Of a stretch of 64,000 nt of DNA, positions 1,176 through 58,826 are shown one piece after another. Source of the stretch: Eledone cirrhosa (taxonomy: Eukaryota); NCBI GenBank assembly GCA_964016885.1, contig OZ024753.1, positions 9,362,001 through 9,426,000 of the forward strand. The letters are read 5' to 3'. The notes beneath the pieces are model-generated. The model worked only from the letters and a program-made list of their open reading frames with translations, was not told the origin of the DNA and made no database searches. A program made the position numbers and the translations under genes. Numbering within the stretch: position 1 is the stretch's first letter; every line of letters begins with the position of its first letter.

Positions 1176-1448
1176 TACAAGTATCATCATCACCATCATT
1201 ACATCTATTTTCCATGCTTTCATTTGTTAGATGGTTTGTCAGATTCTGAGGTTAGACAAGACAGGTGACTGTGTCTCACTCATACATTCCAGTTTGGCAT
1301 GGTTTATATGGCTGGATGTTCTTCCTAATGCCAACCTCTCCATGGATCACACCACATGTGTGTTTATTATTGCAGCATCACTACCATCTGATAGAGGGAA
1401 CTGCGGGCTGTTTATCATAGCACCAACACTCTCACTTTACAGAGTGGG

Positions 1449-3470
1449 TTGGGTGCATTTTTATTGTGGCACCAGCACTACCACATTACAATGTGGAATG
1501 GGTGCATTTTATTGTGGCACCAGCACTACCACATTACAGTGTGGAATGGGTGCATTTTATTGTGGCACCAGCACTACCACTTTACAGTGTGGAATGGGTG
1601 CATTTTATTGTGGTACCAGCACTACCACATTACAGTGTGGAATGGGTGCATTTTATTGTGGTACCAGCACTACCACATTACAGTGTGGAATGAGTGCATT
1701 TTATTGTGGTACCAGCACTACCACATTACAGTGTGGAATGAGTGCATTTTATTGTGGAATGAGTGCATTTTATTGTGGCACCAGCACTACCACATTACAG
1801 TGTGGAATGAGTGCATTTTATTGTGGCACCAGCACTACCACATTACAATGTGGAATGGGTGCATTTTATTGTGGCACCAGCACTACCACTTTACAGTGTG
1901 GAATGGGTGCATTTTATTGTGAAACCAGCACTACTACATTTCAATGTGGGTTGGGTGCATTTTATTGTGGTACCAGCACTACCACATTACAGTGTGGAAT
2001 GAGTGCATTTTATTGTGGCACCAGCACTACCACATTACAGTGTGGAATGGGTGCATTTTATTGTGGCACCAGCACTACCACTTTACAGTGTGGAATGGGT
2101 GCATTTTATTGTGGTACCAGCACTACCACATTACAGTGTGGAATGGGTGCATTTTATTGTGGTACCAGCACTACCACATTACAGTGTGGAATGAGTGCAT
2201 TTTATTGTGGAATGAGTGCATTTTATTGTGGCACCAGCACTACCACATTACAGTGTGGAATGAGTGCATTTTATTGTGGCACCAGCACTACCACATTACA
2301 ATGTGGAATGGGTGCATTTTATTGTGGCACCAGCACTACCACTTTACAGTGTGGAATGGGTGCATTTTATTGTGAAACCAGCACTACTACATTTCAATGT
2401 GGGTTGAGTGCATTTTATTGTGGTACCAGCACTACCACATTACAGTGTGGAATGAGTGCATTTTATTGTGGCACCAGCACTACAACATTACAATGTGGAA
2501 TGGGTGCATTTTATTGTGGTACCAGCACTACCACATTACAGTGTGGAATGGGTGCATTTTATTGTGGTACCAGCACTACCACATTACAGTGTGGAATGAG
2601 TGCATTTTATTGTGGAATGAGTGCATTTTATTGTGGCACCAGCACTACCACATTACAGTGTGGAATGAGTGCATTTTATTGTGGCACCAGCACTACCACA
2701 TTACAATGTGGAATGGGTGCATTTTATTGTGGCACCAGCACTACCACTTTACAGTGTGGAATGGGTGCATTTTATTGTGGCACCAGCACTACCACATTAT
2801 AGTGTGGGCTGGATGCATTTTATTGTGGTACCAGCACTACCACATTACAGTGTGGAATGAGTGCATTTTATTGTGGCACCAGCACTACCACATTACAATG
2901 TGGAATGAGTGCATTTTATTGTGGCACCAGCACTACCACATTATAGTGTGGGCTGGATGCATTTTATTGTGGTACCAGCACTACCACATTACAGTGTGGA
3001 ATGAGTGCATTTTATTGTGGCACCAGCACTACAACATTACAATGTGGAATGGGTGCATTTTATTGTGGTACCAGCACTACCACATTACAGTGTGGAATGG
3101 GTGCATTTTATTGTGGTACCAGCACTACCACATTACAGTGTGGAATGAGTGCATTTTATTGTGGCACCAGCACTATCACATTACAGTGTGGAATGGGTGC
3201 ATTTTATTGTGGCACCAGCACTACCACTTTACAGTGTGGAATGGGTGCATTTTATTGTGGTACCAGCACTACCACATTACAGTGTGGAATGGGTGCATTT
3301 TATTGTGGCACCAGCACTACCACATTACAGTATAGAATGGGTGCATTTTATTGTGGCACCAGCACTACCACGTTACAGTGTAGAATGGGTGCATTTTATT
3401 GTGTCACCAGCACTACCACATTACAGTGTGGACTGGGTGCATTCTATTGTGGCACCAGCACTACTACCTT
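1449..3470. repeat. 48-bp minisatellite with 21-bp short units and a 453-bp higher-order repeat, derived from an RTE/SINE 3'UTR segment
   Basis: Unit GGGTGCATTTTATTGTGGCACCAGCACTACCACATTACAGTGTGGAAT, ~42 copies. Variant GAAACCAGC at 1921 and 2374. Preceded by a degenerate minus-strand RTE/SINE 3' end at ~1185-1340. Confidence 0.95.
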
Positions 3471-4660: not shown

Positions 4661-4711
4661 TAGACACTCTAAAATAACTAGTTTTGTATATTAGAACCAA
4701 GCTATTTTCAT

Positions 4712-5390
4712 GCAGGTTAGTATCTTAGAACCAAAGGTAGTTTCAGGCAGGTTAGTATCTTAGAACCAAAGGTAGTTTCAGGCAGGTTAGTATCTTAGAA
4801 CCAAAGGTAGTTTCAGGCAGGTTAGTATCTTAGAACCAAAGGTAGTTTCAGGCAGGTTAGTATCTTAGAACCAAAGGTAGTTTCAGGCAGGTTAGTATCT
4901 TAGAACCAAAGGTAGTTTCAGGCAGGTTAGTATCTTAGAACCAAAGGTAGTTTCAGGCAGGTTAGTATCTTAGAACCAAAGGTAGTTTCAGGCAGGTTAG
5001 TATCTTAGAACCAAAGGTAGTTTCAGGCAGGTTAGTATCTTAGAACCAAAGGTAGTTTCAGGCAGGTTAGTATCTTAGAACCAAAGGTAGTTTCATGCAG
5101 GTTAGTATCTTAGAACCAAAGGTAGTTTCAGGCAGGTTAGTATCTTAGAACCAAAGGTAGTTTCAGGCAGGTTAGTATCTTAGAACCAAAGGTAGTTTCA
5201 TGCAGGTTAGTATCTTAGAACCAAAGGTAGTTTCAGGCAGGTTAGTATCTTAGAACCAAAGGTAGTTTCATGCAGGTTAGTATCTTAGAACCAAAGGTAG
5301 TTTCAGGCAGGTTAGTATCTTAGAACCAAAGGTAGTTTCAGGCAGGTTAGTATCTTAGAACCAAAGGTAGTTTCAAGAGAGTTAGTATCA
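4712..5390. repeat. 35-bp minisatellite, ~19 nearly identical copies
   Basis: Unit GCAGGTTAGTATCTTAGAACCAAAGGTAGTTTCAG. Confidence 0.95.
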
Positions 5391-9266: not shown

Positions 9267-9941
9267 TTCAAAATATTAATAAATATAGACATTCATGTGA
9301 TTAAATATATTTTATTATACATATTTCAGAGGTACTGAGCTATTTCAACAGTACATCCTCATCAGATAAAATAAGTTGATGCCTGACAAACCTTGACTAT
9401 GTTGATGGTTATAATTTAGTCATGGCAGTCATAACTAAATTATAACCATCAACATAGTCAAGATTTGTCAGGCATCAACTTATTTTATCTGATGAGGACG
9501 TACTGTTGAAATAGCTCAGTACCTCTGAAATCATCATCATCATTTTCATCATTTCATTTTACGTCCGCTTTTCCCTGCTTGCAAGGGTGGGACGGGAACT
9601 GATTCTGGCTTGATTTCTACAGCTGGATGCCCTTCCTAACACCAACATCATTTACAGTGAGTGCTGGGTGCTTTTTTGCCGTGGCACCTCCACGACCACT
9701 TTGCAGTGGAATGATAGGGACCTCAGTCCTATCATCTCATTTCTACAGCTGAGTAAACTGGAGCAATGTGAAATAAAGTGTCTTGCTCAAGGAAACAACA
9801 CATCACCCAGTCTGAGAATTGAACTCACAACCTTTCGATTGCAAGCCCAATGCTCTAACCACTAAGCCATGTGCCTCCATGTAATATGTATAATAAAATA
9901 TATTTGATCACATGAATGTCTATATTTATTAATATTTTGAA
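9267..9941. repeat. Long palindrome (~160-bp arms) interrupted by a SINE; contains a hammerhead-like core
   Basis: 9267-9426 is the near-perfect reverse complement of 9428-9531 plus 9883-9941; CTGATGA-G-GAC-GTACT-GTT-GAAA at 9489-9511. Confidence 0.9.
9532..9880 (-). mobile_element. SINE family A
   Basis: Reverse complement of full SINE A with (CAT)n at the left end. Confidence 0.9.
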
Positions 9942-12397: not shown

Positions 12398-12434
12398 ATC
12401 TTCTGATGAATACTAGTGTCCGAAACGTTAAGAC
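12398..12434 (+). ncRNA. Minimal type-I hammerhead ribozyme-like motif (Penelope-type)
   Basis: TCTT-CTGATGA-ATAC-TAGT-GTCC-GAAAC-GTT-AAGA: intact core, palindromic stem III AACGTT, stem I TCTT/AAGA; stem II partly decayed. Confidence 0.6.
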
Positions 12435-13380
12435 ACTTGTCTTCCTATATCAAGCGTTAAACTAATATATTTCTACATTGGCAAATTGACAGAGTCATTG
12501 GGGTGTCAGTATTGTTTCATTTCTCTGCTCTCTGAGTTCAAATCCCACCAAGGTCAGCTTTGCCTTTCATTTACTCGCGGTTGATAAAAAGGCATTTCTT
12601 CATTGTACTGTGTTGTTTGCTTTGTTATTTCTGTTTACTTTTTGCATATATAAATTTCATATTTTATTATGAGATGCTTTATAAGTTTTCCTCATTGCAG
12701 ACATGTGAGAATTTACTGATTGCAATAATTTGTAATTTCTTGCAATTATTGAAGAATTTTATATTTTGTTGCAAAGGCCATGTCATCGATAATGTTCATT
12801 GTACTAAAGCTATCAAATATAGAGATTTCAGATTTGTCGATATGAGCAATTTTGAAAAATTTCATGACTCAATATATCAGTGTTTGTAGATTTTTGGTGA
12901 TTTTCAAATTTATTATAAATTATCACAATTACTCTAGATTTTTCACTTTTCACAATTCAAACAGTCTCAGAAACGATTAAAGTTCAATTATATAATCTTA
13001 GATATATGTAATTTTGAAAATTTTCGTAATCAATTACTTGTTGAAATTAGCAAAGTTTGGAGGTTTGCAATTATGATATAAATACTTTTTTAACTTTTAA
13101 TGGCTGAAGATGATATATTGTAATGTTTTAGTTTTAGGAATAGTTACATTGTCTCACAAGGAGTGAAGTAGTAGAGTTGTTAGACTCTCAGATAGAGTGT
13201 ATTACAGTATTTATTCTAGGTTTAAATGCCCAATGTAATGACACTGCCCCTACAGTTCTATCAAGAATTAAGACATCATAGATGGATGGACATCCTATAA
13301 CTGCATGTCATAAGGAGTTACTAAAGTTGGCATTAAGAAATGCTCCTTCTTTTTTAGTCCCTTCTGATCTCTATGGCACA

Positions 13381-29500: not shown

Positions 29501-31137
29501 TCATCATCACCGTTTTACGTCCGTTCTTCCACGCTAGCATGGGTTAGACGGGTTGTCCTGTTGTGGGCAGTGACCAGTCGGTTGACCTTGTCTTGCTCAT
29601 ACAGAACTGATGCTGGCTTGATTTCTACAGCTGGATGCCCTTCCTAACACCAACCTCATTTACAGTGAGTGCTGGGTGCTTTTTAGTGTGGGCGGGGTGC
29701 TTTTTTTCCGTGACGCCTACACGTCCACTTTACAGTGTGGGCTGGGTGCTTTTTAGTGTGGGCTGGGTGCTTTTTAGTGTGGGCTGGGTGCTTTTTAGTG
29801 TGGGCTGGGTGCTTTTTAGTGTGGGCTGGGTGCTTTTTAGTGTGGGCTGGGTGCTTTTTAGTGTGGGCTGGGTGCTTTTTAGTGTGGGCTGGGTGCTTTT
29901 TTTCCGTGACGCCTACACGTCCACTTTACAGTGTGGGCTGGGTGCTTTTTAGTGTGGGCTGGGTGCTTTTTAGTGTGGGCTGGGTGCTTTTTAGTGTGGG
30001 CTGGGTGCTTTTTAGTGTGGGCTGGGTGCTTTTTAGTGTGGGCTGGGTGCTTTTTAGTGTGGGCTGGGTGCTTTTTAGTGTGGGCTGGGTGCTTTTTAAT
30101 GTGGGCTGGGTGCTTTTTTTCCGTGACGCCTACACGTCCACTTTACAGTGTGGGCTGGGTGTTTTTTAGTGTGGGCTGGCTGCTTTTTAGTGTGGGCTGG
30201 GTGCTTTTTAGTGTGGGCTGGGTGCTTTTTAGTGTGGGCTGGGTGCTTTTTTTCCGTGACGCCTACACGTCCACTTTACAGTGTGGGCTGGGTGCTTTTT
30301 AGTGTGGGCAGGGTGCTTTTTAGTGTGGGCTGGGTGCTTTTTAGTGTGGGCTGGGTGCTTTTTAGTGTGGGCTGGGTGCTTTTTAGTGAGTGCTGGGTGC
30401 TTTTTAGTGTGGGCTGGGTGCTTTTTTTCCGTGACGCCTACACGTCCACTTTACAGTGTGGGCTGGGTGCTTTTTAGTGTGGGCTGGGTGCTTTTTAGTG
30501 TGGGCTGGGTGCTTTTTAGTGTGGGCTGGGTGCTTTTTAGTGTGGGCTGGGTGCTTTTTTTCCGTGACGCCTACACGTCCACTTTACAGTGTGGGCTGGG
30601 TGCTTTTTAGTGTGGGCTGGGTGCTTTTTAGTGTGGGCTGGGTGCTTTTTTTCCGTGACGCCTACACGTCCACTTTACAGTGTGGGCTGGGTGCTTTTTA
30701 GTGTGGGCTGGGTGCTTTTTAGTGTGGGCTGGGTGCTTTTTAGTGTGGGCTGGGTGCTTTTTAGTGTGGGCTGGGTGCTTTTTACTGTGACACCTACACG
30801 TTCACTTTACAGTGTGGACTGGGTGCTTTTTACTGTGGGGCCTACACGTTCACTTTACAGTGTGGACTGGGTGCTTTTTACTGTGGGGCCTACACGTTCA
30901 CTTTACAGTGTGGACTGGGTGCTTTTTACTGTGACACCTACACGTTCACTTTACAGTGTGGACTGGGTGCTTTTTACTGTGGTGCCTACACGTCCACTTT
31001 ACAGTGTGGACTGGGTGCTTTTTACTGTGGGGCCTACACGTTCACTTTACAGTGTGGACTGGGTGCTTTTTACTGTGGGGCCTACACGACCACTTTACAG
31101 TGTGGGTGTGTGGGGGCATATTGTCTATATGCTTCAT
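29501..31137 (-). mobile_element. RTE long-UTR family 3'UTR with internal minisatellite expansion (21-bp and 48/49-bp units, ~29663-31105)
   Basis: Flanks match the reverse complement of 11280-11585; the middle is (AGTGTGGGCTGGGTGCTTTTT)n interspersed with CCGTGACGCCTACACGTCCACTTTAC. Confidence 0.9.
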
Positions 31138-35614: not shown

Positions 35615-35661
<47 letters not shown>

Positions 35662-35662
35662 C

Positions 35663-35689
<27 letters not shown>

Positions 35690-35694
<5 letters not shown>

Positions 35695-36035
35695 TCACAA
35701 GATTCAAAGCTATGTTCAAAGCATTTATTCACTTACAATTGTTTCATCCAAACGTAGGCTTGGAGTCTTCGGACCATTTTTCAATGCTTGTACATATAAT
35801 TGACCTCCTATCCAACGCAAGAGATGTACAGATACATATATATATATTGATGTACAGTGGAGTGACATATATTATACTATACTATATTTGTACAGCAATT
35901 CAAATTTAAAATCAAAATTAAAATACATGCGGCAGATAACACAGATAATGCAAGAGGATAGTTTGATAGCCAGATCTAGTAGATAGTGTATGCGTTAGTC
36001 ACACATGGAGCATGCAAGTGTGTCTCGTTTATATA
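35690..36035 (-). mobile_element. Non-coding hammerhead-bearing repeat (retrozyme/Penelope pLTR-like), copy 1
   Basis: Homologous to 58430-58790; minus-strand CCGAAGA-C-TCCAAGC..GTTTGGA-T-GAAAC-AATT-GTA at ~35733-35772. Confidence 0.7.
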
Positions 36036-36235
36036 CCAGTATTGTGTGGCAAGGTGTTACATGTAATGCAAGCGCTTTAAGCGGGTAAGCAAGAGTATTA
36101 TGGTGGTTGTAGTGGGAGGGTATTTTTTGTATAGATCAAAAAAGTATGTGTGCAGAAAAAGAAAAAGAAAGTTATAGTTTTTGCATCCACCACCATTTTC
36201 ACATTAAGAAAAAGGAAGTTATAGTTTTCACATCC

Positions 36236-36570
36236 AGGCACATGGCTTAGTGGTTAGAGCATTGGCCTTGCAATCGAAAGGTTGTAAGTTCAATTCTCAG
36301 ACAGGGTGGTGTGTTGTTTCCTTGAGCAAGACACTTTATTTCACATTGCTTCAGTTTACTCAGCTGTAGAAATGAGATGATAGGGACTGGGGTCCATACC
36401 ATTCCACTGCAAAGTGGTCGTGGAGGTGCCACGGCAAAAACTCCCAGCACTCACTGTAAATGAGGTTGGTGTTAGGAAGGGCATCCAGCTGTAGAAATCA
36501 AGCCAGAATCAGTTCCCGTCCCACCCTTGGAGGCAGGGAAAAGTGGACGTAAAATGATGATGATGATGAT
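36236..36570 (+). mobile_element. SINE family A, full length
   Basis: GGCACATGGCTTAGTGGTTAG..; short-UTR RTE-type tail, (ATG)n. Confidence 0.9.
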
Positions 36571-55760: not shown

Positions 55761-56193
55761 TTATGTACAGTGCTCAGGTGCACTACAACTCATCAAAAGT
55801 GTATGTATAGTACATAGGGTAATGTACAAACGTCAGGAAAATGAACAGTGCATGAGTCATGATATACACATGTGTGCATGTGTATGGAAGGGGTACATCA
55901 GGTGTAGTTTTGGCGAATTTCGGGAAGCATGAGGGTTTTAAAGGATGCAGTGTCTCGGCAGCTAACAACTGACGCAGGCAGTTTGTTCCATGGAGGTTTT
56001 AAAGGATGCAGTGTCTTGGCAGCTAACAACTGACACAGGCAGTTTGTTCCATGGAGGTTTTAAAGGATGCAGTGTCTCGTCAGCTAACAACTGACACAGG
56101 CAGTTTGTTCCATGCTTCAGCAACTCTAAGCGTGAAAAAATGTTTCTGAAAGTCATGGGAGCTGTGCTGTTTTCTGACTTTGTAGGCATGTCC
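55761..56193 (-). mobile_element. CR1 3' fragment with internal 60-bp triplication
   Basis: Reverse complement of 34785-35062 homolog; flanked by ATTATGT on both sides. Confidence 0.85.
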
Positions 56194-57039
56194 ATTATGT
56201 TAGAAGATTTTAATTTAAATTGGAAACCTTGGTTTCCAATTTAAATTAAAATCTTCTAACATAATGGACATGCCTACAAAGTGGTTTTATTTCATAGAAC
56301 CAGAGTTGGTTTTAGCCAGATTGCTAACTAAAGGGTTAAGAATAGATTCACTGTATCTCTGCAACTAAAAGGGATGGCACAAGAACAAACATCCAGAACT
56401 ACAACCATAAGGCACTGCCTAGAAAAAAAAACAAAAAAACTCATGATGAGTATGAGACCTACCATGTGACCTAGGTAACCCCTGCCTTTGCAAGGAAATG
56501 ACCTTAAATTGCTCACCATATAGTTGAAACATCCATAGCTCAGCCAATATTGATTACAGAACACACAAAATCGATATTAAAGCAGAAATGTATATTTAAA
56601 CTATAATATATAAACAAAATACACTATCCGTATCTGAAGAGTACAAATATCAAAGGAAGTAAAATAACACAAACATGTAAAAACACATGATTAATATCCA
56701 TTTAACCTTTTTCTAAATATCTTGTTATGATCCACCATCATCATGACCCATCATCATTATCATCGTTTAACAGCCACTTTCCTTGCTAGCAAGGGTTGTA
56801 TAGGTCTACTTAGATGAAGTCAGTACCGAAGTGGGGTTACTGATCTCCCTGAAAGGCCAGAGATCTGCATCTTGCTTACATTTGGTCTTACATTCTACAG
56901 AGTGTACAGGGAGATGATGTCATGTCTTTGACACATCTGAAAGGTTCTCTTCCCCTAAATTCTAAATACACAAATCTAAGCATTTTGTGTTATGCACCTT
57001 TGGGTTATATTGTCTAAATTGTTGCTGTATATCACTGGT

Positions 57040-58310: not shown

Positions 58311-58429
58311 TGTTTGTTGAATGGTAATGTGTGTTTTGCTATTGATCAGTTCAAGGTTTGATCTGTATCAATCTTGCCTGACACTGGAATCAAAGGCTTG
58401 TTGCACTTCTGTTATATGTATATGTATAT

Positions 58430-58785
58430 ATAAATAAGACACGCGTGCATGCTACACGTGAGATTGTTTCATACACTGACTACTCTAAACTTTCCTCTTG
58501 CTTTATCTTCATAAACTGCCAATGTTTCATTTTTATTTTTATTTTTATTTTTATTTTTACCCTTTAACCTTTATATGTAAATTGCCATGCTATATCATTC
58601 TGATGGATGTCATCCCACTGTGGGTCAATATGTGCATATATTTTTATATGTCTCTTGTGTTGACAAGGAGGTCAAGTATGTTATAGAGCACTAAATAGTT
58701 GCTCCGAAGAATCCAAACCTCAGTTTGGAGGAAACAATTGTAAGCAAATAAATGATTTAAACTGAACTTTGATTATTGTAATCTC

Positions 58786-58790
<5 letters not shown>
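58430..58790 (+). mobile_element. Non-coding hammerhead-bearing repeat (retrozyme/Penelope pLTR-like), copy 2
   Basis: TTGCT-CCGAAGA-A-TCCAAAC-CTCA-GTTTGGA-G-GAAAC-AATT-GTA-AGCAA at 58699-58747; flanks homologous to 35690-36035 (minus). Confidence 0.72.

Positions 58791-58826
<36 letters not shown>

Follow-up and report, generated by a model that had tools for sequence, protein, structure and literature searches.

The repeat at positions 58429–58790 of the window (the whole 64-kb stretch of DNA analysed here) and its diverged homolog on the opposite strand are 5′-truncated pseudo-LTR (pLTR) ends of a very abundant Penelope-like element (PLE) of the Hydra clade. Both carry a minimal hammerhead motif with C instead of U at position 4 of the core (CCGAAGA), and comparison of the genomic copies indicates that this C4 core is inherited as a family trait and not the outcome of decay. 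Our best reading, which we regard as probable, is that 5′-truncated Hydra-clade PLE ends lie at (TA)n tracts with an inherited C4 minimal hammerhead whose predicted cleavage would be slow and would require either dimerisation or the element's own protein. The copies in the window, taken by themselves, are dead transposon ends of an ordinary sort, with the following features:

58429–58790, plus strand: copy A, 3′ end (pseudo-LTR) of a Hydra-clade Penelope-like element, 5′-truncated and without ORF
58699–58747, plus strand: minimal type I hammerhead motif of copy A, from the sequence and a descriptor scan
58734–58741, plus strand: self-complementary 8-mer ACAATTGT of stem III, predicted to pair between copies in a dimer
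58742–58743, plus strand: predicted cleavage site after GUA, placed by hammerhead numbering
58747–58752, plus strand: AATAAA, a hexamer that is poly(A)-signal-like by its letters and adjoins the 3′ side of the copy A motif
58786–58822, no strand: (TA)n tract at the 3′ junction of copy A, likely the insertion target
35690–36236, minus strand: copy B, 5′-truncated 3′ end from a sister subfamily of the same element, by homology
35729–35777, minus strand: hammerhead motif of copy B with C4 core, C·U closing mismatch and weak stem I, from the sequence and a descriptor scan
35630–35689, no strand: (TA)n tract at the 3′ junction of copy B
36235–36570, no strand: unrelated SINE-like repeat adjoining the 5′ end of copy B, 89–93% identical to other copies in the window

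A type I hammerhead structure can be drawn for the motif of copy A with all the parts that the earlier note had described, namely stem I TTGCT/AGCAA, the core at 58704–58710, a 7-bp stem II, GAAAC, and the GUA triplet; the base of stem II is an A10.1·G11.1 mismatch (58711/58730). Copy B, reported before as a diverged minus-strand homolog, indeed shares the core and stem III and aligns with copy A at 69.7% identity over 412 columns (E 1e-44; copy B 36035–35651, minus strand), and the (TA)n tracts noted at the ends of both copies are present. The homology is thus real, but the span previously given for it (35690–36035) was too short, as copy B reaches 36236 and ends at the SINE-like repeat, two other window copies of which match tRNA-like Rfam models. 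A continuation of copy B past this repeat was looked for and not found, and its stem I is not clean but carries a G·G mismatch. Since tblastn detected no Hydra ORF in the window, both copies are truncated ends; with neither an ORF nor a nearby partner motif, they are probably inert passengers.

The descriptor scan found five hammerhead motifs in the window, of which only those of copies A and B have C4, while no Rfam hammerhead matched the window or a 161-bp stretch at E values up to 10. Canonical-core minimal hammerheads of other families lie at 12398–12435 (plus strand) and 44097/44182 (both strands), the pair at 44.1 kb being an inverted duplicate. The 5′ edge of copy A at 58429 is the commonest start of family homology (36 matches). 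A TATAAA box, located about 275 nt upstream of the hammerhead motif, occurs at 58429 and 36035, where the homology among subfamily A, subfamily B and a third subfamily with AGCT in loop III starts, and is possibly the pLTR promoter. The pLTR also contains a (TTTTTA)n tract (58525–58560) that extends over hundreds of bases in some family copies. Elsewhere in the window are two near-perfect palindromes, one of 209 bp (9323–9531) and one of 84 bp (56188–56271) with miRNA-model matches below the cut-offs, as well as tandem arrays at 1363–3470, 29679–31105 and 4680–5389, two of which are related (48-bp-type units) and one of which has 70-bp units.

Far from forming a two-copy repeat, as had been thought, copies A and B are members of two large and distinct subfamilies: A first look across the 3.0-Gb genome gave 2,532 candidates for the subfamily of copy A and 2,238 for that of copy B, and among the 40 scored for each, the best full-length candidates were 94–98% identical to the window copies. 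The fold of the 49-mer alone is not significant, with a stability that is not unusual (z −1.04 in single-strand folding), but the motif goes beyond chance in the genome because the pattern CCGANGA-N14-26-GAAAC-NNNN-GTA was matched 8,000 times compared to 155 times for a reversed control. Counted in one fixed frame, 7,249 of 7,536 copies read CCGAAGA, so the canonical core of Hydra pLTR hammerheads is not the state of this family; 151 read CTGAAGA (U4), 136 read CCAAAGA (a dead G5A variant), and the control gave 0. The near-equal U4 and G5A counts probably reflect CpG mutation on the two strands, which argues that there is no sizeable canonical subfamily. Among the subfamily A motifs printed, 32 of 33 read CCGAAGA. 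The AGCT subfamily, the youngest that was sampled, combines C4 with an A·G mismatch in copies whose ORF DNA is 98.7–99.8% identical (four copies), and elements with the C4 core have therefore amplified recently. This genome-wide collection agrees with the suggestion of the earlier note that the shared unusual core is a family trait.

Upstream of the 5′ end of copy A, most family copies continue over ragged lengths, which extend to 1.5 kb or more, and the longest reach an ORF with RT and GIY-YIG parts, which bears out the link to Penelope-like elements that had been raised as the alternative to a new family. Six intact loci were chosen for appearing full-length: In L342 and L344, the motif seen in the window stands at either side of an 830-aa ORF, and L338–L341 have an 832-aa ORF between two AGCT-type motifs, with the flanking motifs of these intact elements 4.2–4.7 kb apart. 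The pLTRs of L342 form a 344-bp direct repeat (99.1% identical), and copy A is 84–90% identical to both pLTRs of L342 and L344. An ORF of this kind, 85–88% identical in the RT region, is also linked to subfamily B (L058, L068, and L075). In locus L035, the order is (TA)n, an inverted partial pLTR, a pLTR with the motif, an ORF with one stop, about 1.2 kb of further sequence, a second pLTR with the motif, a tail, and again (TA)n. Direct pseudo-LTRs flanking an ORF, an optional tail and an inverted, truncated partner together make up the anatomy of a PLE, and the six intact loci, which carry both together, argue against an origin of pLTR and ORF from different elements. Among 78 classified copies of subfamilies A and B, the 3′ end runs into the 5′ UTR tail in 36 and into TA/TC repeats in 35, with 7 unclassified. 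In a look at sequencing runs, two from one study cover the whole element and two presumed RNA runs gave 0 contigs, an outcome that carries no weight on expression.

The 830-aa ORF carries RVRWR/RWK, DKT at 126, YRDD at 357, CNCRSSRTC (CxCX5C) at 689, IIY...YIG at 708, CNLC (CxxC) at 787, and CQH (CxH) at 815 and thus the sequence marks RW(K/R), DKT, CxCX5C, CxxC, and CxH that are described among the features of the Hydra clade (PMC8557442); copies lie at (TA)n, an insertion preference also listed there for Hydra families. Judged by these motifs, the C terminus appears to be a GIY-YIG endonuclease, and PF01541 matched the isolated C-terminal piece alone (E 0.0047, below the curated cut-off) with no match on whole proteins. 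The RT was not recognised by Pfam or PDB sequence searches, but it was by a fold search in which the structure model of the ORF (pLDDT 84.9) had TERTs as its seven best Foldseek matches in the PDB (E 8e-10 to 3e-8), so that the model points to a single ORF with a telomerase-like RT. Our trees comprise relatives from the same genome, metagenomes and databases, with the named Hydra proteins absent; one relative of the ORF carries the label Octopus bimaculoides in its source.

The element resembles the published Hydra clade (including Hydra-1_Obim) in its C-terminal GIY-YIG endonuclease, DKT, CxCX5C, CxxC/CxH, (TA)n, pLTR hammerhead and inverted 5′-truncated copies as these are given in PMC8557442. 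It differs in that all 25 families listed in File S2 of that study have U4, having been found with a CUGANGA-type search descriptor, and in that Hydra elements are there described as generally smaller than 3 kb compared to a unit of 4.2–4.7 kb here. The motif listed for Hydra-1_Obim differs in all stems, which sets it apart, by the motif alone, as another family. Similarly, the minimal hammerheads of metazoan PLEs, in the account of PMC4209133, share with ours the short helix I, the long helix II, the palindromic loop III, the location in pLTRs, and an occurrence mostly as solo copies with nearby opposite-strand pairs. Their consensus is CUGANGAH with a G10.1–C11.1 pair and U3–A8 as the named core variant, whereas ours is CCGANGA with a 1x1 mismatch at the base of stem II in families A and B.

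Among the parts expected of a minimal PLE hammerhead, the C3/G8 pair, G5, A6, A9, GAAA, NUH and the palindromic loop III are all present, while subfamilies A and B have C4 with A·G, C·U, C·A, C·C or U·U in place of U4 with a paired G10.1–C11.1. Taking the A that follows the core for the one extra nucleotide of min-HHRs was also considered and rejected, since stem II would be misaligned. The motif belongs with the minimal hammerheads of dimer type that have a palindromic stem III, as had been recognised from the window: The exact monomer hammerhead fold has a probability of just 0.007, while cofolding of two copies yields an 8-bp intermolecular helix III, and the palindrome is retained across the stem III variants AATT, AGTT, AGCT, GATC, ACGT, ATAT, and GTAC. 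When the search pattern allowed any base at the two middle positions of loop III, the first 100 rows contained only AATT (67), AGTT (13), and AGCT (20), counted by eye, and the series AATT, AGTT, AGCT would be a path through a G·U state. ARCT was matched 2,136 times, with the AGCT palindrome in 98 and AACT in 2 of the first 100, and other C4 families with GATC, ACGT or ATAT gave 448 matches compared to 109 for the control.

Alignment of the three subfamilies gave a three-way identity of 82% over 39 motif columns, 36% upstream and 52% downstream, which shows at the sequence level that the motif is conserved more strongly than its flanks. Covariation, which the earlier note had wanted to see, gave a divided result in 15 related variants picked by hand: Pairing is possible in 87% of the cells, and the covariation score exceeds that of all 500 shuffles, but pairs with a change at both positions are no more numerous than in shuffles (175 of 500 reach their number). 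In this selection, stem III is 100% pairable, two of its pairs having changed at both positions, and stem I is paired at 74.7%; some subfamily B copies have a weak or broken stem I, and in family C only 2 bp are uninterrupted.

The mismatch that closes stem II is a clade trait and, as far as sequence comparison can tell, no mark of dead copies as had been feared for the window copies. The same A·G is found in intact young elements, and, by our own count, positions 10.1/11.1 are unpaired in 15 of the 25 families that File S2 of PMC8557442 lists for the Hydra clade. Mutual compensation of C4 and the mismatch was considered and rejected, as family C combines C4 with a G–C pair and many U4 Hydra motifs are mismatched.

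Relatives in the same genome present other combinations. Family C has C4 and a 4-bp stem II closed by G–C, located about 650 bp behind a Hydra endonuclease that is 41–46% identical to that of family A. Family D (L161–L190 and L346–L349) is a very young Hydra-like family with many intact 827–830-aa ORFs, 96–99% identical among themselves and about 50% to A, and its pLTR motif combines the canonical U4 with GATC in loop III and a stem II that is about 100 nt long. Family E (927–928-aa ORFs; L380–L384, L388, and L391–L393) is young, has a U3–U4–A8 core, and groups with the C4 family C in a quick endonuclease-only tree (support 99 over 145 columns). A C4 assignment for family E was rejected after comparing seven 3′ ends, since the motif 1 kb behind the ORF belongs to a neighbouring insertion. 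C4 may thus have arisen either once, with loss in E, or twice. Additional C4 motif families (L211–L230) have GATC, ATAT or AATT loops and stem II regions of 13 and 20 nt, with no directly linked ORF within the 6-kb stretches, and one C4 motif, in which stem I has 10 bp and stem II is long, lies in an insertion outside family E (L381:1860–1940, minus strand).

In the mechanism that we propose from general knowledge of PLEs, the full element would be transcribed across both pLTRs, and its RT/GIY-YIG protein would nick AT-rich DNA and reverse-transcribe from just beyond the 3′ pLTR; an early stop of reverse transcription would leave short ends like copies A and B, often with an inverted partner. 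Two motifs are predicted to pair via the 8-nt palindrome and to cut after GUA, trimming multimeric RNA, at a rate that C4 and the unpaired stem II base are predicted to lower. That such slow, dimer- or protein-assisted cleavage after GUA would take place in full-length transcripts seems likely to us. For minimal PLE hammerheads, PMC4209133 reports inert monomers and weakly cutting multimers. The hammerhead of the anole PLE was cleaved only in the presence of protein, no RNA reads ended at its cleavage site, and an internal start of reverse transcription explains the tail (PMC11167929).

We hold more tentatively, and with somewhat greater doubt than belief, that a whole branch of animal PLEs runs on an active C4 hammerhead (as a dimer, with protonated C4 or with its own protein) kept across families that are about 45% identical in protein. 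If true, neither the standard CUGANGA descriptors nor Rfam models would see the thousands of ribozymes in each genome, and variant cores may be present in some of the PLE clades in which hammerheads had been scored as missing.

The main alternative, itself rather unlikely, is that the motif of this same element no longer cuts and is kept as a fold, serving RT-protein binding, RNA dimerisation or as a 3′-end mark, with C4 tolerated since catalysis would be dispensable. Activity data lend themselves to it, as U4C considerably lowers activity in vitro while supporting viroid infectivity in the account of PMC3088659, and CUGA-turn mutations in general had low activity in the deep mutational scan of PMC9901934. 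Furthermore, hammerhead cleavage is dispensable for insertion of the anole element in vitro (PMC11167929), Naiad elements proliferate without canonical hammerheads, and B and C have a weak stem I. However, G5, A6, G8, A9, GAAA, GUH, and C3–G8 are kept across families, with a compensated U3–A8 in family E, and this retention is what selection on a catalytic core would predict and thus argues against a role in folding alone.

We consider it very unlikely that the motif is a dying relic in which a harmful C4 arose in one master copy and hitchhiked. Repeat families do amplify from few masters, so that 7,249 copies are not independent events, and the close relative E has U4. Against this stand the presence of C4 in two Hydra groups that are only about 45% identical in the endonuclease and in several motif families with other stems, the stronger conservation of the motif relative to its flanks, and a stem III that has changed only via pairable states.

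Least tenable is the title under which the repeat had first been described, a non-autonomous retrozyme family spreading via small circular RNAs: Short non-coding copies with a type I hammerhead would fit it, and a preprint proposes that animal retrozymes derive from PLE pLTRs (bioRxiv 10.64898/2026.07.22.740005), but the copies have ragged 5′ ends that run into a coding element, and intact coding parents carry the same pLTR. No tandem units or short arrays, for which the earlier note had proposed to look, were found among 206 motifs in 172 sampled loci (overlapping loci counted twice): No same-strand neighbours lie closer than 4.1 kb, and the 6 that there are have spacings of 4,172–4,706 bp. 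The other 45 neighbours lie on opposite strands, and 44 of these point outwards, matching the inverted-partner structure described for PLEs. Non-LTR retrozymes as presented in PMC7229834 are likewise short, low-GC repeats of animal genomes with a type I hammerhead, but they are non-coding 150–450-bp tandem repeats that give circular RNAs, whereas the repeat studied here is non-tandem and a piece of an element that is autonomous and coding.

Natural occurrences of U4C are already known, and the novelty of the Hydra-clade element with its inherited C4 core would be the fixation of this change in an animal retroelement, as far as the literature found goes. The same change at position 4 occurs in a natural viroid variant whose activity, as cited in PMC3088659, was much reduced in vitro yet enough in vivo, and deep-sea RNA viromes were searched with CYGANGA, with C/T degeneracy reported among their RNAs (PMC13481778). 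In contrast to these viroid and virome RNAs, C4 is fixed here in thousands of genomic copies of an animal retroelement. Literature searches, most matches of which were judged from their listing alone, gave no report of U4C in PLEs or animals, and the CCGA core is absent from the searchable supplement of PMC4209133 (a scope that leaves aside figures and one file). The element family may already be part of the Octopus vulgaris repeat library or of Dfam/Repbase; the Octopus vulgaris repeat annotation comprises 31 recently active Penelope-like families and, in its main text, mentions neither Hydra nor hammerheads (PMC13282606).

Most hammerhead searches treat U4 as invariant, yet C4 is fixed here in recently amplified intact retroelements, which suggests that CUGANGA-based counts of hammerheads across genomes come out too low. 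Close relatives within one genome with C3–C4–G8, U3–U4–A8 and C3–U4–G8 cores and with the stem II base either paired or unpaired form a natural allelic series that makes it testable whether PLE hammerheads are selected for efficient cutting, for slow cutting controlled by protein or dimerisation, or for folding only. Beyond this genome, a motif was found in 43 of 77 Hydra-like loci from metagenomes, the best one being C3–U4 in 39, U3–U4 in 3 and C3–C4 in 1. The C3–C4 motif (L248:2615–2670) lies 380 bp upstream of a Hydra-like ORF that is itself followed by a U4 motif, which makes its assignment to this ORF doubtful, and it is a well-formed minimal hammerhead, with a 6-bp stem I, an extra A and a 4-bp stem II.
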